Origin: Bacilli bacterium
Lineage (GTDB): Bacteria; Bacillota_I; Bacilli_A; RFN20; CAG-826
Direction: 5' to 3'
Assembly (NCBI GenBank): GCA_051872335.1
Contig: JBJEDT010000024.1
Coordinates: forward strand, 6,984 to 70,983
Length of the DNA: 64,000 bases
The stretch's first letter is position 1; the number at the start of each line of letters is the position of its first letter. The notes below the pieces were generated by a model that worked only from the letters and a program-made list of their open reading frames with translations, was not told the origin of the DNA and ran no database searches. Shown here piece by piece: positions 2,722-63,528 of this stretch. The position numbers and the translations under genes were made by a program.

Positions 2722-3492
2722 TTATTCTTCATCACTATTTTTTAATGAATTCTTTTTTTGAGGAATATACAAGAACAAATTATCAATTGATTTAAACCAA
2801 CGTTTTTCTTTCTCTTTTGTAAAGTGTTCCCATAACGAAGTAAAGATGAAAATTAATAAAAGCATTGATAAAGCAAACATCCACCATTTAAAAGCTGGTA
2901 ATTCATAAGGCCCATGTACAAGATACATTGCATTTGGACTAGGTAATCCTCCCAAATAGAAAACTAATTCGACTAATCCACCAACTACACCACAGGACAA
3001 TAGTCCAAATGTATATGGAACTAAGTTAAATACATTAACTTTAACATAACCACCAACAAATAAGAATAAACAACCAATAAGTAAAAAAGAATGAGATAAA
3101 GCTGATTGAAAATATTGCCAATCATTAAAGCAAGGATCATTAACAAATACAGTAATCAATGCTCCAAAACAACCACCATAAGCAGTAAAGGTAGCAACAT
3201 TTTTAAAAAACTTTGATTCTTTATTTGGCCAAAGACTTACAAAGACAAGTAAATCCATCATATAATTACAAAAATAAATAGGAAATAATTGATTATCTAC
3301 AGCTGTCCCTAAACCACCATTTGCGAAAAAAGACGTATAAATGGTTGAAATATGTAATATAAAACAAATGGAAGCAACAATAAATAAAAATAAATTTTTA
3401 TACTTTTGTTTTTTAATGTAATGAGCTAAAAACATAATTAAAGAAATTATGAAAAATGAGCTAAATATATAAATAATTTGATCACGCGTCAT
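2722..3492 (-). CDS. TIGR02206/YwaF-family integral membrane protein (paralog 2).
   Basis: Multi-TM protein with the LFPIYFCN motif matching LPFHFC/LPLHMC in the other paralogs. The ATG at 3492 has a GGAGAT RBS; the ORF-track start at 3507 is a TTG. Confidence 0.6.
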   Translation of the reverse strand: MTRDQIIYIFSSFFIISLIMFLAHYIKKQKYKNLFLFIVASICFILHISTIYTSFFANGGLGTAVDNQLFPIYFCNYMMDLLVFVSLWPNKESKFFKNVATFTAYGGCFGALITVFVNDPCFNDWQYFQSALSHSFLLIGCLFLFVGGYVKVNVFNLVPYTFGLLSCGVVGGLVELVFYLGGLPSPNAMYLVHGPYELPAFKWWMFALSMLLLIFIFTSLWEHFTKEKEKRWFKSIDNLFLYIPQKKNSLKNSDEE

Positions 3493-3550
3493 AAATACTA
3501 TCTCCAAAAAAAATGTATCTTCGATTGAAGATACATAAAAATACTATAAT

Positions 3551-4270
3551 TTATTTTCTAGTAACGTTTTTTTCAAATGTTCCTTCATGGTAATAGAAGT
3601 CACTAATAAATTCTGCTATAACAATTTTTTCGCTGCCATCGATACCAAAATAAACATCAACGATTTCACCATTTTCATATAAAACTAATGTAGGTGTAGG
3701 TGTTTCTCCATTAGCTAAGTCATCACTGAAATCTTGATCAGATACTTCTTCACATTCTTCTGTTGTTAAGCCATTAACAATTTGAAGAGCATCTACATTG
3801 TTTTCAAACCATTGATAATAATGTGGAACATCCTTGTAGTCTTTGTCATCTTCATCATAATCAAAATCAGTATCATATGCATACATAAATTTTACAACTG
3901 GTTTTTCATGTGATGAATTCTTTTCATAATATTCATTAACAAAATATTTAATACCTTTTTCAGCAGTTGTACATGCATTACAATCTTCACCAACTAAGAT
4001 TAATAAGAATTTTTCACCATATTCAGAAGTTAATTTTCCTTCTTCTTCATATTTCAAGAAATCTTCAGCTGTAATATCATTTTTGTTGATAAAACTATAT
4101 TTACCACTATTTTCAGATAAGTTCTTAATTCCTTTAGAAATTGAAGGAATTGAGAAAATAATACCAAAAATAATACCAACAACTAATAATGGTTGAATCC
4201 ATGCTGTTTCTTTAATCCAGTTCCAAATTTTAGCAAAGAATGAACCAATTGCCTTAAAAACCTTTTTCAT
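3551..4270 (-). CDS. Membrane-anchored thioredoxin-fold protein with a CxxC motif.
   Basis: N-terminal TM helix (LLVVGIIFGIIFSIP), then LILVGEDCNACTTAEKG, a thioredoxin-like CxxC context; acidic DYD-rich linker; AGGAGG RBS. Confidence 0.45.
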   Translation of the reverse strand: MKKVFKAIGSFFAKIWNWIKETAWIQPLLVVGIIFGIIFSIPSISKGIKNLSENSGKYSFINKNDITAEDFLKYEEEGKLTSEYGEKFLLILVGEDCNACTTAEKGIKYFVNEYYEKNSSHEKPVVKFMYAYDTDFDYDEDDKDYKDVPHYYQWFENNVDALQIVNGLTTEECEEVSDQDFSDDLANGETPTPTLVLYENGEIVDVYFGIDGSEKIVIAEFISDFYYHEGTFEKNVTRK

Positions 4271-15834: not shown

Positions 15835-16812
15835 ATGGAAAGAATTTTAAGTGGAATTAAACCAACAGGAAATTTAACATTAGGTAATTATATAGGAGCA
15901 CTTAGAAATTTTAAAAATTTCCAAGATCAAGGTGAAACTTTTATTTTTATTGCTGATTTACACGCTTTAACATTACCAATTGATCCTGAATTTTTAAGAA
16001 CAAACTCAAGAGATATTGCTGCTTTCTATTTAGCAGCTGGTCTAGATCCTAAAAAGACACATATTTTCTTACAAAGTCACGTTTCAGCTCATGCTGAAAT
16101 GAATGCTATTATGCAAAACTTTTTATATATGGGTGAATTATCTCGTATGACTCAATTTAAAGAAAAATCACATAACCTTAAAAACGATGCAATTGGTCTA
16201 GGATTATTTGCTTACCCTGTTTTAATGGCTTGTGATATTTTACTTTATGATGCAACTATAGTTCCAGTTGGTGAAGATCAAACCCAACACGTTGAATTAA
16301 CTCGTGATTTATGTAAAAGATTTAATAATAGATTTGGTGACATTTTAACAATGCCAAAAGCCGTTGTTACAAAAGTCGGTGCTCGTATTATGTCTTTATC
16401 TAACCCTACGGTAAAAATGTCAAAATCCGACCCTAAAGGTGATGTTTTCTTAAAAGATGACCTCCAAGTTATTAGAAAGAAAATTATGTCAGCTGTTACT
16501 GATTCTGAAATGGAAGTAAGATATGATAAAGAAAATAAACCTGGTATTTCTAATTTATTAACAATCTATGCTTCATTAAAAAACATTTCTATTGAAGAAG
16601 CTGAAAAAGAATTTGTTGGAGCAAATTATGGAACATTTAAACGTGCTGTTGCAGACGTTGTATGTAATGAACTCCAAGGTTTCCAAGAACGTTATCAATA
16701 TTTTATTAATTCAGGAGAAGTTGATAAAGTACTTGAAGAAGGTGCTGAAGCAGCTCGCAAAGTTGCTGATAAAACATTACAAAGAGTCAAAGATGCAGTA
16801 GGATTATTATAA
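15835..16812 (+). CDS. trpS: Tryptophan--tRNA ligase.
   Basis: GIKPTGNLTLGNY (HIGH-like) and KMSKSD motifs, 325 aa. Confidence 0.95.
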   Translation: MERILSGIKPTGNLTLGNYIGALRNFKNFQDQGETFIFIADLHALTLPIDPEFLRTNSRDIAAFYLAAGLDPKKTHIFLQSHVSAHAEMNAIMQNFLYMGELSRMTQFKEKSHNLKNDAIGLGLFAYPVLMACDILLYDATIVPVGEDQTQHVELTRDLCKRFNNRFGDILTMPKAVVTKVGARIMSLSNPTVKMSKSDPKGDVFLKDDLQVIRKKIMSAVTDSEMEVRYDKENKPGISNLLTIYASLKNISIEEAEKEFVGANYGTFKRAVADVVCNELQGFQERYQYFINSGEVDKVLEEGAEAARKVADKTLQRVKDAVGLL

Positions 16813-16816
16813 AAAC

Positions 16817-16841
16817 AACCAAGCCATCGGCTTGGTTTTAT
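16817..16841 (+). terminator. Terminator: AACCAAGCC-atc-GGCTTGGTT followed by a T-rich tail.
   Basis: 9-bp stem immediately after the trpS stop. Confidence 0.6.
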
Positions 16842-16859
16842 ATTGAAAGGAAAAGTTAT

Positions 16860-17678
16860 ATGGAAGAAAAATATATTATTGGAATAGATCTTGATGGAAC
16901 TCTTTTAAATAGTAAATCAAAATTATCTCATTCAACTATTTCATATTTAAAGAAAATATCTAAGCAAGGTCACATTATTGTTTTATGTACAGGTCGACCA
17001 TTAAGAGCAATGTTACCATTTTATCAACAATTAAAACTGAAAACCCCTGTCATTTGTTATAATGGTGGTCGTGTTTTTAATCCAAATGATAATTTTTTTC
17101 CAAGTATTACTTATTCATTTAATAAAGAAGATATTAAAGATATCATTAATTCAATTGGTTTAGAAAAAATCGATAACATTATGTGTGAAGTAGATGATAA
17201 AGCATGGGTCTATGCTCACGATAAAAAAATTGAAGAAATTCTATGGCATAATAATATTTCTTTAATATATGGAGATTTAAATAAAACGTTAAATGAAAAT
17301 CCAATTACATTTCTTATCTTTTCTAAACATAAAGAATGTAAAAAACTAATTAGTAAAAATATTAAAGAGAAATATCCTACACTTAAATATCGCTTTTGGA
17401 ATGGCTACCTAGAAAATTTTTCTGAAATCTTTGATAAACACATTTCAAAATATAATGCTTTAAAAAGCGTTGCTAAATATTATAAGATTCCATTAGAAAA
17501 TATTATTACTTTTGGAGATGGAGAAAATGATATTGATATGATTTCTAAAGCAAATTATGGCTATGCAATGGTTAATGCACCTGAAGACATTAAATCCAAA
17601 GCCAAATATATTACAACGAAAGATAATGATCATGATGGTGTAATCATAGAATTAAAAAAAATAATCAAGAACAAATAA
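16860..17678 (+). CDS. Cof-type HAD-IIB family hydrolase (sugar-phosphatase-like).
   Basis: IGIDLDGTLLNS motif I and the GDGENDIDM motif; 272 aa. Confidence 0.8.
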   Translation: MEEKYIIGIDLDGTLLNSKSKLSHSTISYLKKISKQGHIIVLCTGRPLRAMLPFYQQLKLKTPVICYNGGRVFNPNDNFFPSITYSFNKEDIKDIINSIGLEKIDNIMCEVDDKAWVYAHDKKIEEILWHNNISLIYGDLNKTLNENPITFLIFSKHKECKKLISKNIKEKYPTLKYRFWNGYLENFSEIFDKHISKYNALKSVAKYYKIPLENIITFGDGENDIDMISKANYGYAMVNAPEDIKSKAKYITTKDNDHDGVIIELKKIIKNK

Positions 17679-17705: not shown

Positions 17706-19408
17706 ATCTTTAAAATGTTCTTTATATATAAATATAATCTTTGTGGTTTATTAAAGACTTCATCTTTAGTTCTACCGACTGCATTAACATAAATCTTGCA
17801 TTTTGGTTCTGTACCACTTGGCCTAATAGAAACAACTGATTTATCTTCAAGAATAAATCTCATAACATCTGATTTAGGTAAAGTTAAATCTTTTACTTCT
17901 TCACCTTCATAACGTTTTGATTCTAAATAATCCTCAAAAGCCACAACACGTAAACGGCTAATCTCTTTAAATGGTTTTTCTCTAACTTTTGCTAAAAGAG
18001 TTTTCATATTTTCACTACCTTCAGCACCCTTAAATTCGACTGAATATTGAGTGTCTTTATAGAATTCACCTAATTTACGTTGTACATTATATAATACTTC
18101 ATCAAGATGTAAACCTTGTTCATTATAGAAACAAGCTAACTCAGCATATAGTAATGATGCTTGAAGACCATCTTTATCTCTAACAAATGGAGCAATTAAT
18201 GCACCATAACTTTCTTCATAACCAAACTCAAAATGTGGACCATTTTCTTCGACTTCAAATTCGTGGATTTTTTCACCAATAAATTTGAATCCTGTTAATA
18301 AAGATATTGTTTTAACTCCATATTGTTTAGCAATGTTTTCTCCAAATGAAGAAGTAACAATTGTATTAAACATTACACCGTTTGGACTTAATAATCCTTT
18401 AGCTTCTCTTTGAGATAAAACATAATCAAGTAGTAAAGCACCTGCTTCATTACCATTTAATTTACGATATGTACCATCTGATGCCAAGTAAGCTATACCA
18501 ACTCTATCAGCATCTGGATCAGTTGTAATAATTAAAGGAGCTTTAATACTATCAGCTAATTCAAGAGCTTTAGTATAAGCTTTTGGGCTTTCTGGGTTTG
18601 GTGATTCAGTACCAGAAAAATTAGGATCAGGATCACATTGAGAAGTGACTGGAACTACTTCATAACCAGCTTCATTAAAAATTCTCATTAAATTGACATA
18701 AGATGTACCATGTTGAGGAGAAAAAACAATTTTGTAACCCTCTTTTTTAACATCTGGATTTAATCTAATTCCTAAGACTGCTTGACAATAAGCATCATCA
18801 ACTTCAGGACCTAAAATATTAGTTTCACCATGAGGTTGGAATTCAGTTACTGCTGTTGCTAATTCATGATCCTTAGAAGCAATAATCTCTAAAAGTCTTT
18901 CAATCTTTTCAGGAACTAATTGACAGCCATTTTCATCATAAACCTTAAAACCATTATATTCTTTTGGATTGTGAGAAGCTGTAATTACAATACCACCAAC
19001 ACAATTTAAATATCTAATTGCAAAAGATAATTCAGGAGTAGGTCTCAAACTATCAAATATATATACATTAATACCATTAACATTTAAAATTTCAGCTGTT
19101 TCGTTACAAAACTCACGCGAATTCATTCGATTATCATGAGCAATAACAACACCTCTTTGACGTGCATCAGGGAATTTTTCTATTAAATATTCTCCATAAC
19201 AAACAGCAGCTTTAAGTATTGTAAAGAAATTCAATCTATTACTTCCAGGTCCCATTACCCCACGCATACCTGCAGTACCAAATTCAATATCTTTGAAGAA
19301 AGCATCGCTTCTTTCTTCTTGTGTCATTTTTCTTAAAATGTTTTTATCCTCTTTAGAAACTAAATCAGATTTAACCCATGTTTTATACTTATCATCAATA
19401 CTTCTCAT
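17702..19408 (-). CDS. pgcA: Phosphoglucomutase / phosphomannomutase (alpha-D-phosphohexomutase family).
   Basis: TASHNPKEYNGFKV active-site serine loop, 568 aa. Confidence 0.85.
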   Translation of the reverse strand: MRSIDDKYKTWVKSDLVSKEDKNILRKMTQEERSDAFFKDIEFGTAGMRGVMGPGSNRLNFFTILKAAVCYGEYLIEKFPDARQRGVVIAHDNRMNSREFCNETAEILNVNGINVYIFDSLRPTPELSFAIRYLNCVGGIVITASHNPKEYNGFKVYDENGCQLVPEKIERLLEIIASKDHELATAVTEFQPHGETNILGPEVDDAYCQAVLGIRLNPDVKKEGYKIVFSPQHGTSYVNLMRIFNEAGYEVVPVTSQCDPDPNFSGTESPNPESPKAYTKALELADSIKAPLIITTDPDADRVGIAYLASDGTYRKLNGNEAGALLLDYVLSQREAKGLLSPNGVMFNTIVTSSFGENIAKQYGVKTISLLTGFKFIGEKIHEFEVEENGPHFEFGYEESYGALIAPFVRDKDGLQASLLYAELACFYNEQGLHLDEVLYNVQRKLGEFYKDTQYSVEFKGAEGSENMKTLLAKVREKPFKEISRLRVVAFEDYLESKRYEGEEVKDLTLPKSDVMRFILEDKSVVSIRPSGTEPKCKIYVNAVGRTKDEVFNKPQRLYLYIKNILKI

Positions 19409-20518: not shown

Positions 20519-20609
20519 GGAGAAATACCCAAGTGGCTGAAGGGGCTGGCTTGGAAAGCTAGTAGATGGGTAACACTATGCGAGGGTTCGAATCCCTCTT
20601 TCTCCGCCA
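20519..20609 (+). tRNA. tRNA-Ser (anticodon GGA) with a long variable arm, CCA encoded.
   Basis: Manually folded: 7-bp acceptor stem GGAGAAA/TTTCTCC; anticodon stem CTGGC/GCTAG with loop TTGGAAA (anticodon GGA); long variable arm; T-arm GGTTCGAATCC; 3' CCA. Total 91 nt. Confidence 0.85.
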
Positions 20610-55080: not shown

Positions 55081-56269
55081 TCACCTCAATTCCTATTTTT
55101 CTTAAATCGTCAAAAAAATTCGGATAACTTTTTTTTACTGCTTCAGCACCATTTATTTCAATTGTAAATAAAGTACAAAGCATTGAAAGAGCCATTACAA
55201 TACGATGATCATTGTGTGAATCAAAAGCAACGTCTGGTTCGCATAATTGACTTTTTCTAACTATTACCTCGTTATCTTTAACCTCAATATCAGCATTGAC
55301 TTTCCGTAATTCTTCTACCATATCATCTATACGATTACTCTCTTTTAATTTAAGTCTTTTTGTCCCTATAAATCTTGCTCCATTATTAAGAGTAGCAAAA
55401 GTAAAAAGAACAGGTCCTAAATCTATACATGAAGAGATATCAATTATAGCATTTTTTTCTTTTAAAGTAGAAAAATGCTTTGCATAAATTTTATCTCCTT
55501 GTAAACTATCCTTATTTAAATTTAAAACTTCCACATTGCCATTAAGGTAATTATATACATCTAAAAAAGCCGCATTAGAATAATCACCTTCTATACTACA
55601 TTCTTGATTTTGATAGTGTTGATTACCTTTTATATATAAAATATTATTTTCAATTTGAATTTGAATATTATGCTTTTGCAAAACATCAATAGTCATTTCA
55701 ATATAAGGAAAACTTTCAATAGGTGGAATAATATGAATTGTACTATCTTCTTTTAGCAAAGGTAAAGTAAACAACAACCCAGAAATATATTGACTGCTAA
55801 TATTACCAGGAACATAAAATTCTCCTCCGTGTAAAGTACCACTAACCATAATTTTATCTTTATATGTTTCAATGGAAATATCTTGATTTTCAAAAATTTG
55901 TTTATAAACTTCTATTCCACGATTTAATAATTTATCACTACCAATAAAAGTTGATTGTGGATACTTAAGTAGAGCTATTGGAATAAAAAAACGTAATGTA
56001 CTACCGCTTTCATAACAATTAAATATTGGATTACTTACCTCAAATTTATTAGGAAATAAAAATAAAGTATCCTTATTTAATTTATAATCAGCACCGAAAG
56101 TTTTAGCACAACCTAAAGTAGCTTTAATATCTTCACTTAAAGAAATATTGTGGATTATATTTTCATTATTACTTAATAATGATGCAATAATATAACGATG
56201 TGAATAACTTTTCGATGGAGGAGCTTTTAGAATTCCACAAGCAATAGATTTATTAATCTTCACTTTCAT
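55067..56269 (-). CDS. aroA: 3-phosphoshikimate 1-carboxyvinyltransferase (EPSP synthase).
   Basis: KAPPSKSYSHRYIIASLLS N-terminal signature. The ATG at 56269 overlaps the upstream stop (ATGA) and has a GGAGGATGG RBS. Confidence 0.9.
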   Translation of the reverse strand: MKVKINKSIACGILKAPPSKSYSHRYIIASLLSNNENIIHNISLSEDIKATLGCAKTFGADYKLNKDTLFLFPNKFEVSNPIFNCYESGSTLRFFIPIALLKYPQSTFIGSDKLLNRGIEVYKQIFENQDISIETYKDKIMVSGTLHGGEFYVPGNISSQYISGLLFTLPLLKEDSTIHIIPPIESFPYIEMTIDVLQKHNIQIQIENNILYIKGNQHYQNQECSIEGDYSNAAFLDVYNYLNGNVEVLNLNKDSLQGDKIYAKHFSTLKEKNAIIDISSCIDLGPVLFTFATLNNGARFIGTKRLKLKESNRIDDMVEELRKVNADIEVKDNEVIVRKSQLCEPDVAFDSHNDHRIVMALSMLCTLFTIEINGAEAVKKSYPNFFDDLRKIGIEVSEIA

Positions 56270-57522
56270 AAAATACCATCCTCCCATTTTTTAATAATTA
56301 AATTAACATTTTCATCTTTTGAATCACATGCCTCTATTTTAATATCACAAACCTTCGCATATAAAGGTGTTCTTTCTTCATATCTCTGCTTTAGTGCTTC
56401 ATATGTAGAACTTAGAGGTCTAGATGGAGTACTTTTTAAAAAAGAAAGGGGTCTTTCTATATAAAAAATCCGTCCATTTTGCTTCAAGTATGAAACATTT
56501 TCTTTTCTTAAAACAGCACCTCCACCTGTTGCAATAACAAGTGATACATTTTGACTGACTTCTTTAATGACTTCACTTTCTATATTCCTAAAAATATCTT
56601 CACCATATTTTTCAAAGAAAGTTGTTATTGTCATATTAATTCTTTGTTCAATTAAAGAATCTATATCAATAAATTGACGATTTAATTTTTGTGCAACTAA
56701 TTTACCTAGAGCACTTTTACCGCAAGAAGGCATACCAATTAACACAATATTTTCTTTTTCTTTTTTTATATTTTTATATATTTCAACAATTTTATTTTTA
56801 TCAAATTCACAATCATGAAATAATTCACATGCATAAAAAGCTTGGGCTATTAACATATAAAGACCACCACAGCAAGGAATAGTTTTTCTTTCTGCGTCTA
56901 CAATTAGTTGTGTTTTCAAAGGATTATAAATAACATCAACAACGCCTTGTAAATTTTTAAACTTATCTATGTTAATTATTGATTCAACATTTAAAGATGG
57001 ATACATTCCATAAGGAGTAGTTGAAATAATTACTTCAACATCATTATTAAAATCATTAATCATCTCTTCATATGTAATTACATTATCTTTTTTATTTCTT
57101 GAAACAAGATAAATTTTTAAAGCCCCTAAATCTTTTACAACTTTACTAGCAGTCTTGGCTGTTCCTCCTGTACCCAAGATAAAAACTTTCTTCCCACAAA
57201 TAGGTATATTAAAATGTAAAATCATATCCTTTAAACCATAGTAATCGGTATTGTAACCATATAATTTCCCGTTTTTATTGATAATAGTATTTATTGCATG
57301 AATTTCTTGAGATTCTTCAGAAAGAAAATCAAGAAAAGGTATAACTACTTCTTTATAAGGAATTGTAACATTTACAGCACGAAAATCAGCCATTTTCATA
57401 AATTCTGAAAATTGCTCATTGTCAGTTAATTCCTTTAATTCATATTGATAATCAACTAATTGCTCATGAATTTCTTTGGAATAACTATGTATTAATTTTT
57501 TTCCAATTAATCCATACTCCAT
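56266..57522 (-). CDS. Bifunctional shikimate dehydrogenase (AroE, N-terminal) / shikimate kinase (AroK, C-terminal) fusion.
   Basis: N-terminal GLIGKKLIHSYSKEIHEQ, NVTIPYK and NTDYYG (AroE); C-terminal VLIGMPSCGKSALGKLVAQKLNRQFIDID P-loop (AroK). Confidence 0.85.
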   Translation of the reverse strand: MEYGLIGKKLIHSYSKEIHEQLVDYQYELKELTDNEQFSEFMKMADFRAVNVTIPYKEVVIPFLDFLSEESQEIHAINTIINKNGKLYGYNTDYYGLKDMILHFNIPICGKKVFILGTGGTAKTASKVVKDLGALKIYLVSRNKKDNVITYEEMINDFNNDVEVIISTTPYGMYPSLNVESIINIDKFKNLQGVVDVIYNPLKTQLIVDAERKTIPCCGGLYMLIAQAFYACELFHDCEFDKNKIVEIYKNIKKEKENIVLIGMPSCGKSALGKLVAQKLNRQFIDIDSLIEQRINMTITTFFEKYGEDIFRNIESEVIKEVSQNVSLVIATGGGAVLRKENVSYLKQNGRIFYIERPLSFLKSTPSRPLSSTYEALKQRYEERTPLYAKVCDIKIEACDSKDENVNLIIKKWEDGIL

Positions 57523-60745: not shown

Positions 60746-61942
60746 CTAACAACACTCCTCATAATACTGTTTCAATTTTATAAAAGCTTCTTCAGAGCTA
60801 GCAATCATTTCACTTGAAACACAATAAGATATTCTTACATAACCTTCCATTCCAAATGAATCACTAGGTACCATAAATAAATTAAATTCTGTAGCTTTTT
60901 TACAAAAAGCAATAGCATCTTTATCTAAAGACTTAACAAATAGATAAAAAGCACCTTCTGGTTTTGCTGCTATACTATAACCAGCATTTGATAAAATATC
61001 AATTAATAAATCACGATTTTTAATATAAATTGAGAAATCAGATGTTACATTAAAAACAGTTGGTAATAAATATTGAAAAATCGAAGGAGCACATATACAG
61101 CCAATAGATCTTCCTGCTCCCTTAACTGCAGCAAAAACTAGTTCTTTATCTTGGCATTTATTCGAAACAAGAAGATAACCAATTCGTTCGCCTGGCAATG
61201 ATAAAGATTTACTATATGAATAAGCAACAAGTGAATTACTATAGTAATTAGTAATGAAAGGATATTTAGTGTTCGAGTAAATTAGTTCTCGATATGGTTC
61301 ATCAGATAAAAGATAAATAACTTGATTAAATTGTTTTTGCTTTTTTTCCAACACTGTACACAAATCAATAATAAATTTTTCACTATATACAACCCCTGTA
61401 GGATTATTAGGAGAATTTATAATAATCATTTTTGTATTTTTTGTTATTTTTTCTTCTAAAACTTCTAAGTTAGGAATGAATCCATCATTTTCGTTTGTTT
61501 GCACTGCCTTTACAATGCCTCCTACTGCATTAATAAAAACTGTATATTCAGGAAAATATGGAGCAAAAATAATGACTTCATCTCCACGATTAATTAATGC
61601 ATGTAATGCAACACTTAAAGAAGTAGAAGCACCATTTGTTAAATACAATAAATCTTTATTTTCGTTGCATCCATAAACTTCATTAATGTTTTCAATGAGT
61701 TTTTCACGGACAAATGCATTTCCTACATTTTCAGTATAATCATGTAAATATGAATCACTATATTCGTCAATAAGTTTTTTTAGATTATCATTAACTATTT
61801 TAGGTGCTTTGACATTAGGATTTCCAATAGTAAAATCATAAACAAGGTGACTACCTATATCTTTTTTTCTTTTATTTGCACAAGCAGATAATTCACGTAT
61901 AACAGAACTTTCAAGTCCTAATTTAATCATTTCTTTATTCAT
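60746..61942 (-). CDS. Class I/II PLP-dependent aminotransferase (aromatic/aspartate aminotransferase-like).
   Basis: SYSKSLSLPGERIGYL PLP-lysine motif; AAGGTGA RBS before the ATG at 61942. Confidence 0.8.
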   Translation of the reverse strand: MNKEMIKLGLESSVIRELSACANKRKKDIGSHLVYDFTIGNPNVKAPKIVNDNLKKLIDEYSDSYLHDYTENVGNAFVREKLIENINEVYGCNENKDLLYLTNGASTSLSVALHALINRGDEVIIFAPYFPEYTVFINAVGGIVKAVQTNENDGFIPNLEVLEEKITKNTKMIIINSPNNPTGVVYSEKFIIDLCTVLEKKQKQFNQVIYLLSDEPYRELIYSNTKYPFITNYYSNSLVAYSYSKSLSLPGERIGYLLVSNKCQDKELVFAAVKGAGRSIGCICAPSIFQYLLPTVFNVTSDFSIYIKNRDLLIDILSNAGYSIAAKPEGAFYLFVKSLDKDAIAFCKKATEFNLFMVPSDSFGMEGYVRISYCVSSEMIASSEEAFIKLKQYYEECC

Positions 61943-62051
61943 CAATATCACCTTATTTCATTAGATAAATTATTTATAATAATTTACTATAAATACTTTA
62001 CTTTGTAAAGCAATGAAACAGCACTTACAAAATAAATTGCGTAAATAAAAA

Positions 62052-62073
62052 GTCTAAATATAATTATTTAGAC
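62052..62073 (-). terminator. Terminator after the TIR-MTase gene: GTCTAAATA-taat-TATTTAGAC followed by a T-run on the minus strand.
   Basis: 9-bp palindrome about 45 nt 3' of the stop at 62119, followed by TTTTTATTT on the minus strand. Confidence 0.5.
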
Positions 62074-62118
62074 CATTTAGTTTTAAAAAATAATTATTAT
62101 CTTCATTTCTTAATATGT

Positions 62119-63474
62119 TTATTTTTTTTGAGCTACACCAACAAAATCAATTTCAGAATACCAAAATGATTCCTCAGAAAATTTATTCTCTAATTCACTT
62201 AATAAATACTCCATATCTTCTAATTTTTTTTGATTAGCAGCATTATATGGATCTTTTTCACATATCGATTTTATATAATTTTTACGATATGAAAATCTTT
62301 CAATAAAAATTTCATTACGCTCATCTAAATCCATACCAGATACTTCTTTGACCCAGTTAATCATCTTAACATTTTTATATCCGGAAGAAACTAATTGAGA
62401 ATATATTTTTCTTCCATTTAATCTATCTGATATACCATCACATGAAAGATGTAAATCAACTACTTTTTTAATTAAGCCATCATCATTATATGTAACAATC
62501 GACCCATCATCAGAACCTCTGATAATGATATAACCATCATCAGCTAAAATCTTTCTAACATTCCTTAATAATTTGTTTGGATTTTTCAAATGATGAATAA
62601 CTAATGAAGCAAAAATAATATCAAATTTTTCAATATTTTCTTTTTGCATAATTTCATAAAAATTATCAACTATCTCTTCATCTTCTAAATCTAAAACATA
62701 ATAAGAAGCTCCATTGAACATAGAGTTTTCTTTTGCATACTCAATTAACGTTTCTCCACGATCAACACCTACAACTTTAGCATTTGGAATTTTAGAAAAA
62801 CGATCTTTAGTAACAAAACCATAAGCACATCCCATATCTAAGATAGAAAGTTGTTCTTTTTGTGGCATATGATCTAGTACATATTTAATTGCATTTTGAT
62901 CGGGTTCTCTGGTATTAATTGCTTGTATTCTTAATCTTTTTAATTCACTTTTATTTTCAGCTTTGTATGATGAAAGATGTTTTCCAGTAATAAGAGAAAT
63001 TTCTTCTTTATGAAAATCAAATGATTCTTTTTTGTCTTCTGTTCTTAAAAACTTCTTTACAAAATCAACGACTTCTCCATTAGAAGAAACTCCAATTTGA
63101 AAAGTTTGATAATTTCTTAAACTTCTAGGAACATCTAATCCAGTGATATTTTTTAAAAAAGGAACAATGCATGCTTTAACTTTTCTTCCAGATAAAATAT
63201 CGTTATGGAAACTTTCTCTTTCATATGAAACCCATTGAGATTCAAGAAATTCTTTTTTTGTAGCAACACAAACTAAAACACTCGAATTTTCTAGTGCTTC
63301 CTCTATTGCGTTTTTATAAGCTGCAGCTCCTAATTCATTAAGAACTTTATTACTATAAAAAACATTTAATCCTTGTTCTTTAAACAATTCATAAAGTCGT
63401 TCAGCAACAAAACTATCCTCAGTTCTATTACCATTTTCATCTAAATTTTTAAAAGATATAAAAACATCATACAT
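62119..63474 (-). CDS. TIR-domain protein fused to a class I SAM-dependent methyltransferase (451 aa).
   Basis: N-terminal ~150 aa: YDVFISFKNLDENG...LVCVATKKEFLESQWVSYERESF, a TIR fold with the WxxxE glutamate context. C-terminal: ILDMGCAYGFV (motif I), VVGVDRGETLIEYAKEN (motif II), FDIIFASLVIHHL and LADDGYIIIRG (Methyltransf_11/25-like). AGGTGA RBS. Confidence 0.7.
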   Translation of the reverse strand: MYDVFISFKNLDENGNRTEDSFVAERLYELFKEQGLNVFYSNKVLNELGAAAYKNAIEEALENSSVLVCVATKKEFLESQWVSYERESFHNDILSGRKVKACIVPFLKNITGLDVPRSLRNYQTFQIGVSSNGEVVDFVKKFLRTEDKKESFDFHKEEISLITGKHLSSYKAENKSELKRLRIQAINTREPDQNAIKYVLDHMPQKEQLSILDMGCAYGFVTKDRFSKIPNAKVVGVDRGETLIEYAKENSMFNGASYYVLDLEDEEIVDNFYEIMQKENIEKFDIIFASLVIHHLKNPNKLLRNVRKILADDGYIIIRGSDDGSIVTYNDDGLIKKVVDLHLSCDGISDRLNGRKIYSQLVSSGYKNVKMINWVKEVSGMDLDERNEIFIERFSYRKNYIKSICEKDPYNAANQKKLEDMEYLLSELENKFSEESFWYSEIDFVGVAQKK

Positions 63475-63528
63475 ATTTAATCACCTATAAAAATTATAAC
63501 ATATGATTTAGCATTACAAAATTACATT

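Follow-up and report, generated by a model that had tools for sequence, protein, structure and literature searches.

A TIR domain fused to a methyltransferase-like module in an uncultured gut Bacilli bacterium: a candidate self-contained sensor-effector protein

A 64,000-nucleotide stretch of contig JBJEDT010000024.1 (positions 6,984 to 70,983; hereafter the window, in whose numbering positions are given) from the Bacilli bacterium assembly GCA_051872335.1 carries a gene on its reverse (−) strand at 62119..63474, with 451 codons plus stop and an ATG start in the open reading frame (ORF) list. Its product joins an N-terminal TIR domain to a C-terminal methyltransferase (MT)-like module, and is termed TIR-MT here. 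We propose that TIR-MT is a self-contained sensor-effector protein of the abortive-infection or programmed-growth-arrest type, a reading that we hold to be about evenly poised between right and wrong. According to this proposal, the MT-like module would use a conserved, charged pocket to bind S-adenosylmethionine (SAM) together with another ligand or substrate, and would keep the N-terminal TIR domain inactive. Altered binding at the module would release or oligomerize the TIR domains, with loss of SAM, a phage-made or damage-derived metabolite, or a bound foreign macromolecule as candidate triggers. The active site formed by W81 and E85 would then cleave NAD+ and stop the growth of the infected or stressed cell.

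Domain architecture of TIR-MT

The TIR domain comprises residues 1–146 (63037..63474, −), as delimited by Pfam TIR_2, a model of the domain alone and Foldseek. TIR_2 matches residues 4–123 with 35.8 bits (gathering cut-off 28); relatives of TIR-MT score 50–64 bits, and some of them also match PF01582. An AlphaFold model of the isolated domain, with a predicted local distance difference test score (pLDDT) of 91 and a predicted template-modeling score (pTM) of 0.87, is best matched in Foldseek by AbTir (7uxu, E = 6.6e-6, TM-scores 0.67/0.73), followed among the top matches by SARM1, plant TNL TIRs (RPP1), MAL and the SPARTA TIR (TM-scores 0.6–0.73). The folds of nucleoside 2-deoxyribosyltransferase and DNPH1 rank lower than TIRs in this list. 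Profile and fold searches thus both place the N-terminal region among TIRs and not in a non-TIR flavodoxin-like family, the distinction on which a preliminary description of the gene had made its assignment of a bacterial TIR domain depend. The motif DVFISF lies at residues 3–8 and the putative catalytic Trp/Glu motif, W81-V-S-Y-E85, at 63220..63234 (−), the latter recognized by invariance and profile alignment. When the family profile is compared with PDB sequences, AbTir and 7uxr come first, and WVSYE falls on the AbTir segment DWTNYELDG, whose aligned residues we take to be the catalytic pair W204/E208. W81, Y84 and E85 are invariant across 30 family members, and a Glu equivalent to E85 is conserved in at least 90% of divergent TIR-MT proteins; the catalytic glutamate claimed from the sequence alone has therefore held up in alignment. 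Because the Pfam cut-off is passed, AbTir and SARM1 are the closest folds, WVSYE falls on the catalytic WxxxE and E85 is invariant, the domain is predicted to be a TIR of the enzymatic, NAD+ hydrolase (NADase) type. Its nearest relatives outside MT fusions (P0175, P0238, P0264, P0269, P0271) are of two kinds: tandem-TIR proteins, of which one ends in WG-repeats, and TIR proteins whose C-terminal 250–270 aa are unannotated.

The MT-like module spans residues 175–451 (62122..62952, −) and consists of an N-terminal capping helix, a Rossmann core and a C-terminal helical/beta extension. Five Pfam families (Methyltransf_31, 12, 11, 23 and 25) match residues ~205–322, all over their cut-offs, with Methyltransf_31 reaching 67.2 bits (cut-off 27). 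The module has the seven-stranded, Rossmann-like fold of class I methyltransferases (MTases), and its fold neighbors are small-molecule MTases, not MTases of DNA or other macromolecules. SAM-binding motif I, L212-D-M-G-C-A-Y-G219 (62818..62841, −; identified by conservation, its DNA read from the sequence), is intact. Across the architecture classes described below, its residues D213, G215 and G219 are conserved in 93–100%, D238 in 95–100% and D285 in 87–94%, so that profiles, motif residues and fold all bear out the class I methyltransferase that had been claimed for the C-terminal part. A family-specific motif, R319-G-S-D-D-G-S325 (62500..62520, −), is invariant in the close family, and its R319, D322 and D323 are conserved in 86–100% across all classes. 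This motif is probably part of an acceptor or ligand pocket; a second family-specific charged motif, GISDRLNGRKIY, lies at residues 347–358. Every NCBIfam match of TIR-MT falls far under its cut-off, with no equivalog among them, and the module could serve as a binding-only sensor.

In the full-length model (pLDDT 78), the two domains are joined by a very-low-confidence segment, the linker, at residues 147–174 (62953..63036, −; pLDDT <50, about 31). Close family members all share its T163, G164, S168 and Y170, and Y170 is conserved in 77–95% across all architecture classes. The motif S168-x-Y170 precedes the capping helix and is retained in every class, stand-alone MT proteins included. The segment that bears it could be a lid or a pseudo-substrate.

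One MT module with interchangeable N-termini

When 1.84 billion cluster representatives were searched exhaustively, 127 proteins were returned at E ≤1e-30, and the best 150 were classified by their N-terminus. About 66 of these begin with a TIR domain (33 recognized by a family hidden Markov model (HMM) and 33 by Pfam TIR_2). In another 22, the N-terminus is a helical, HEPN-like domain of ~160 aa with an invariant R117-x4-H122 and weak matches to six HEPN Pfam families (HEPN_RiboL-PSP, HEPN_Apea, HEPN_Swt1, HEPN, HEPN_Cthe2314 and Ymh). Three proteins (P0270, P0272, P0273) carry DUF4062 (Pfam E = 8e-7), which in PADLOC matches the candidate defense model PDC-S60 (E = 2e-21), and seven (P0212, P0214, P0227, P0231, P0240, P0245, P0267) have ~100 aa that look transmembrane (TM) by eye and have no Pfam match. 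One protein of 809 aa (P0274) combines an unannotated N-terminus of ~300 aa with a C-terminal histidine phosphatase, and ~30 are stand-alone MT modules of ~290–300 aa with no N-terminal domain. Divergent TIRs of the MT-fused family match the PADLOC SAVED-TIR, SPARTA-TIR and CBASS “Effector TIR” models, and DUF4062 is reported, in a 2026 preprint (doi 10.64898/2026.05.01.722283), as a TIR-like NADase family in antiphage defense. TIR, DUF4062, HEPN and TM segments have one trait in common, in that all are standard toxic outputs of bacterial immune or abortive-infection systems.

The cofactor and pocket residues behind these varied N-termini are ~75–100% conserved, most of them at ≥90%, in TIR, HEPN and other classes alike (scored were Y170, E177, R180, Q184, D192, D213, G215, G219, D238, D285, R319, D322, D323, R351, R355 and R397). 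Since this holds in each class, all architectures are predicted to read the same ligand. As one MT module carries interchangeable effector-type N-termini, we favor the MT module as the sensing part and the N-terminus as the effector. Fusion of the same module to HEPN, DUF4062 and TM domains elsewhere also lends indirect support to a role of TIR-MT in conflict or defense.

The shared pocket bears on a suggestion of the preliminary description, namely that the MTase modifies what the TIR domain produces. TIR-MT would then yield an NAD-derived molecule (an ADP-ribose isomer or nicotinamide) and methylate it, either to produce a signal or to block the salvage of nicotinamide, so that NAD+ loss could not be reversed. 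In its favor, both domains appear to be intact as catalysts and are equally strongly constrained (omega, the ratio of nonsynonymous to synonymous substitution rates (dN/dS), of 0.063 for the TIR and 0.031 for the MT part against a sister species), the MT module is similar in fold to small-molecule N-, O- and S-methyltransferases, and an Arg/Asp-rich pocket (R319, D322, D323, R351, R355) could suit a nucleotide-like ligand. However, the pocket is equally conserved in proteins that produce nothing from NAD (HEPN-MT, TM-MT and stand-alone MT modules), and TIR-MT loci lack a linked gene for a downstream receptor or effector. Because one invariant pocket, found with RNase and membrane N-termini as well as alone, cannot plausibly serve the products of all N-termini, we disfavor product modification and rate it as very unlikely.

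A reversal of the roles is highly improbable in our view. In that arrangement the MTase would be the output, acting on a host or phage macromolecule (tRNA, rRNA or protein), and TIR, HEPN or DUF4062 would serve for sensing or assembly. TIRs do scaffold oligomers as well, filaments of MAL, MyD88 and TRIF being among the TIR fold matches; some family members weakly match CheR, PCMT, FtsJ and mRNA-cap MTase profiles, and RNA-modification genes lie nearby at some loci. Yet the catalytic residues of the TIR (Glu) and HEPN (R..H) domains are kept, which a scaffold would not need, short TM N-termini would be unable to sense cytoplasmic ligands, and the nearest structures are small-molecule and not macromolecule MTases.

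Among the siblings of TIR-MT, HEPN-MT adjoins a CorA-like membrane protein of 464–486 aa in three of four loci (L071:9001-11840, Paenibacillus GCA_042666275.1; L072:7389-10443; L076:5392-8398). The two genes are co-directional in the Paenibacillus isolate and divergent in two gut metagenome-assembled genomes (MAGs). CorA-like copies share merely 23–26% identity with one another, and PADLOC defense-associated CorA models match the protein with E = 4e-13; the window and all TIR-MT loci lack a CorA-like gene. Such proteins act as the SAM-AMP-activated effector of type III-B CRISPR (PMC10600005) and accompany the HEPN nuclease Cas13b in type VI-B1 (PMC11662929). Judged from gene adjacency and profile matches, HEPN-MT and its CorA-like neighbor may form an undescribed two-gene system. 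The Paenibacillus pair sits downstream of the walRK-yycHIJ operon, in a stretch that also contains a DpdB/DndB-like gene (PADLOC DpdB, E = 2e-23), a WYL-domain regulator and an EVE-domain gene (L071:7160-8239, 16418-17365, 18010-18462) and that looks like a defense island. We count the CorA-like partner of HEPN-MT, together with the DpdB-like, WYL and EVE genes beside the Paenibacillus copy, in favor of a conflict system.

Carried further, the MT module would mark out a family of immune sensors not described before, whose task is to monitor the SAM pool, or a SAM-derived or phage-made nucleotide, and to fire interchangeable suicide effectors: TIR and DUF4062 NADases, a HEPN RNase with its CRISPR-type CorA partner, and membrane segments. 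We consider this broader proposal quite unlikely. Phages disarm restriction-modification and BREX systems with SAM-degrading enzymes, and in a concrete form, offered as a possibility, the family would guard against such enzymes, with the window gene as its TIR-armed, single-protein version.

Among the stand-alone modules, one on a Joint Genome Institute (JGI) metagenome contig (3300036453; L074:1-13072) lies at 3203-4072 amid many small unannotated ORFs. The contig also carries two weak FtsK/SpoIIIE-like genes, DUF723 and a nicotinate phosphoribosyltransferase, and is possibly a mobile element or virus. A 157-aa ORF 26 bp upstream of the stand-alone MT (P0361) was considered as a detached effector and rejected, as it matches neither the TIR nor the HEPN HMM.

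Distribution, age and setting of the TIR-MT gene

Homologs of TIR-MT are numerous in metagenomes, with proteins of ~450 aa matching at 100% coverage down to ~54% identity; among cluster representatives, full-length homologs reach down to ~28–30% identity. Source databases label them just “methyltransferase domain-containing protein”. In species-representative genomes the fusion occurs in ~47 of 185,579, its carriers being MAGs of uncultured Firmicutes (Bacilli/Clostridia), many of them from animal guts. Exceptions are one Spirochaetia genome and two oddly labeled matches on small contigs, “Acidiphilium” (L046) and “actinobacterium” (L058, a 30% partial match). All-versus-all ORF clustering of 48 loci returned no neighbor family in more than 7 loci, and the neighbors that do recur (a P-type ATPase, ECF sigma/anti-sigma, LspA/RluD) are housekeeping genes, their recurrence reflecting local synteny. 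In all eight Pfam-annotated contexts the gene stands solitary among core genes. A conserved partner gene was thus found neither in the clustered loci nor in the annotated contexts, which agrees with the single-gene system that had been suggested.

A MAG of a sister species has the identical order pcp / TIR-MT / aminotransferase / pheA / aroB / aroC / aroE-K. A same-strain contig, the only one that an exact-protein look-up returned, also has TIR-MT in this order, from pcp to aroE-K. Between window and sister species, TIR-MT is 93.6% identical at the protein level and the flanking genes 67–83%; the synonymous rate (dS) is 0.84 for TIR-MT and 0.72–0.99 for the flanks, and dN/dS is 0.043 for TIR-MT, taken over both domains, versus 0.11–0.28 for the flanks. 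Because its dS equals that of the flanks, the locus is shared and its GC content is normal (26.8% in the gene vs 27.1% in the window), TIR-MT is as old as its surroundings and not a recent islet. The preliminary description had viewed the gene as a defense islet inserted between housekeeping genes, and this view finds no support in the same observations, in the low dN/dS or in the scarcity of defense neighbors (2 of 128). Conservation at one locus across the genus, which it had named as grounds for refutation, is seen in part, in the two species that can be compared. When JGI metagenomes were scanned with the flanking aminotransferase, no species closely related to that of the window turned up. 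A defense-island or mobile accessory gene was accordingly rejected as a category for TIR-MT on neighbors, locus conservation and GC content, polymorphism being sampled in three genomes or contigs. Over longer times TIR-MT moves or is re-acquired, since copies at ≤84% identity lie in unrelated neighborhoods.

Several of these observations weigh against an immune sensor-effector. TIR-MT is an old, vertically inherited resident of its locus, more constrained than the adjacent biosynthetic genes and equal in GC content to its genome; defense genes usually turn over, and vertical inheritance at a fixed locus is unusual for them. Presence/absence polymorphism was not demonstrated in the three genomes or contigs compared. 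Neighborhoods are of the housekeeping kind: among 128 immediate neighbors at ~43 loci, a clear defense gene (GmrSD) accounts for two and housekeeping genes for the remainder, and annotated contexts contain no integrase or transposase near TIR-MT. Viral contigs, scanned with an alignment of the family and with two stand-alone MT proteins, contained no TIR-MT, GenBank phages gave just a generic MTase-core match and no TIR-MT, and on plasmids the fusion is nearly absent, one family member lying on a haloarchaeal megaplasmid in an uninformative context. No experiment or genomic hallmark links the TIR-MT class itself to phage defense. Of the sibling classes, HEPN-MT is assigned from weak profile matches and the Rx4H motif, and the stand-alone MT modules mean that the module may simply be an enzyme.

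An enzymatic role of this kind is embodied in the alternative that gut Firmicutes use TIR-MT as a bifunctional enzyme outside immunity. Its TIR, constitutive or regulated, would act as an N-glycosidase on NAD+, NAD-capped RNA or another nucleotide, and the MTase would methylate a metabolite in the same pathway, for example in NAD or nucleotide turnover or in a stress or stationary-phase response. Such an enzyme would fit a gene that is solitary among core genes (the aromatic amino-acid operon, a threonine operon, rRNA/tRNA-modification genes), vertically inherited with a dN/dS below that of its housekeeping flanks, normal in GC content and free of mobile-element or defense context at its loci, as it would fit an MT fold nearest to small-molecule MTases and the occurrence of stand-alone modules. 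In addition, TIR proteins can strip nicotinamide from NAD-capped RNA and gut-bacterial TIRs metabolize NAD, according to two reports (PMC10937652, PMC9092222). It fits less well with the very patchy spread and with loci that differ between lineages. Moreover, the same MT pocket is fused to HEPN, TM segments and DUF4062, for all of which one metabolic pathway cannot account, and HEPN-MT has a CorA-like partner of a defense-associated type. We judge the bifunctional enzyme unlikely; if it were correct, TIR-MT would be a rare case of a TIR domain evolving in a housekeeping-like manner (dN/dS 0.04). For the sensor-effector protein, in turn, we count the patchy spread and the differing loci at ≤84% identity, and the low dN/dS over both domains would fit a toxin kept in check by auto-inhibition, where most changes of sequence could bring about self-activation.

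The neighbors of the window gene, pcp upstream and aminotransferase-pheA-aroB-aroC-aroE/K downstream, agree with the pcp gene and aro operon of the preliminary description, and the signals it listed were also recovered. A ribosome-binding site of its own, AGGTGA (63481..63486, −; read from the sequence), precedes the ATG by 6 nt, and the terminator hairpin that had been placed at 62052–62073 is real. It lies at ~62051–62074, 3′ of the TIR-MT stop, as a 10-bp AT-rich stem followed by UUUUUAUUU, and the 89-nt 3′ region folds with −15.2 kcal/mol (z = −3.78; 0 of 200 shuffles fold equally well). RNA folding delimits the AT-rich hairpin with its U-tract to 62040..62079 (−), likely the intrinsic terminator of the TIR-MT gene; it is missing from a consensus terminator scan because its stem has fewer than three G-C pairs. 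Promoter-like hexamers around the gene show no excess over chance (12 observed vs 14.7 expected), and transcription separate from pcp is therefore not demonstrated. An Rfam scan found no structured RNA near the gene.

In the downstream aro operon, one 418-aa protein (56266-57522, −) combines Shikimate_dh_N and SKI domains, and this fusion of shikimate dehydrogenase and shikimate kinase is shared with the sister species (L066:11933-13189). The aminotransferase (60746-61951, −) is listed with a GTG start, giving 401 aa; a start at the ATG three codons on, giving 398 aa, is more likely, since that form is on record in public assemblies and agrees in length with the sister species. Rfam detected no riboswitch or T-box ahead of the aro operon, and its sole match at gathering threshold in the window is a tRNA gene (20519-20606, +).

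Relation of TIR-MT to known systems

The closest counterparts of the TIR domain are TIR NADases of the AbTir/BtTir type (PDB 7uwg, 7uxu, 8g83, 7uxr), which give the best profile and fold matches, share the five-stranded, flavodoxin-like beta-alpha fold and carry W-x3-E at the same position. Their TIR is joined to coiled-coil or other N-terminal regions, not to a C-terminal methyltransferase, and shares ~20% identity with that of TIR-MT, whose activity is predicted. SARM1, with its TIR among the top fold matches, offers another parallel, as its TIR NADase is held in an auto-inhibited state by a fused sensor of a small metabolite. Unlike TIR-MT, it uses an ARM-repeat sensor reading NMN/NAD+ and SAM-motif oligomerization domains, forms a eukaryotic octamer and is not methyltransferase-related. 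Weak TIR similarity exists to the Thoeris proteins ThsB in PADLOC (E = 9e-4 over 38 residues) and ThcB4 in NCBIfam (23.5 bits, cut-off 220). These scores lie far under the cut-offs, however, TIR-MT is a single polypeptide with an MTase, and no ThsA-type effector (SIR2, TM or Macro with SLOG) is adjacent in the 48 loci or in Pfam and PADLOC scans of neighbors; membership in Thoeris was rejected on both the ThsB scores and the adjacent ThsA.

On the side of the MT module, the small-molecule class I MTases that resemble it are the Methanosarcina mazei protein MM 3mgg, which has no assigned function, JHAMT, TmtA/GtmA, phosphoethanolamine MTases and OxaG. RGSDDGS, SDRxNGRK and a fusion to a toxic domain are missing from the names and descriptions of these matches, and it is by descriptions alone that they are set apart. 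PADLOC mad2 matches the MT module with 43 bits over residues 191–318, which is the generic SAM-binding core only. A link to MADS, also suggested by neighbors that match mad3, mad8 and AriA, was dropped because those neighbors are UvrA/ABC ATPases; a MADS or restriction-modification methyltransferase was likewise rejected, as the match covers the generic core and the system genes are not adjacent.

CorA-associated CRISPR systems (type III-B with SAM-AMP; type VI-B1 with Cas13b and CorA) resemble the HEPN-MT sibling and not the window gene, in that a HEPN protein is accompanied by a CRISPR-type CorA-like protein. The type III-B CorA is activated by a SAM-derived nucleotide (PMC10600005), and in the HEPN-MT pair the partner of CorA carries a SAM-binding fold; SAM-related signaling within this pair would be speculation. 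Unlike in those systems, Cas10, Cas13, a CRISPR array, NrN and SAM-AMP lyase are not nearby at HEPN-MT loci.

Should the sensor-effector proposal be correct, the class I SAM methyltransferase fold, a very common one among enzymes, would have been recruited as the regulatory module of a cell-suicide or immune protein, serving four or more distinct outputs in Firmicutes, Actinobacteria and archaea. Methyl-donor metabolism would also be tied to immunity in a way that can be tested directly, with phage SAM lyases and SAM-AMP/CorA signaling among the points of contact. The window gene is a compact, single-ORF and highly conserved representative from uncultured gut bacteria that is easily synthesized.

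The preliminary description had regarded a TIR-MTase fusion as absent from characterized defense systems, and this stands: neither PADLOC nor NCBIfam models the protein in full, the two giving only the generic mad2 core and the sub-threshold ThsB and ThcB4 matches, and in full-text literature we found no description of a TIR-, HEPN- or DUF4062-methyltransferase fusion. In overall logic, TIR-MT is closest to the ligand-gated TIR effectors of CBASS, Pycsar and type III CRISPR (TIR-SAVED, TIR-STING, cNMP-binding-TIR), in which a constant ligand-binding module is combined with interchangeable TIR, TM or RNase outputs. The constant module there is SAVED, STING, CARF or a cNMP-binding domain, whereas here it is a SAM-dependent methyltransferase fold, which is the sole non-TIR domain of a protein that has its TIR at the N-terminus and lacks a cyclic-nucleotide sensor domain. 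Neither the clustered loci nor Pfam and PADLOC scans of neighbors show a cyclase, CD-NTase or Cas10 gene linked to TIR-MT, and membership among CBASS or Pycsar TIR effectors was rejected on the missing sensor domain and cyclase. Ligand-gated TIR effectors are thus already known; what would be new is a methyltransferase fold as their constant module, a trigger-reading domain that would join a repertoire now dominated by STAND NTPases and SAVED, CARF, STING and cNMP-binding domains.

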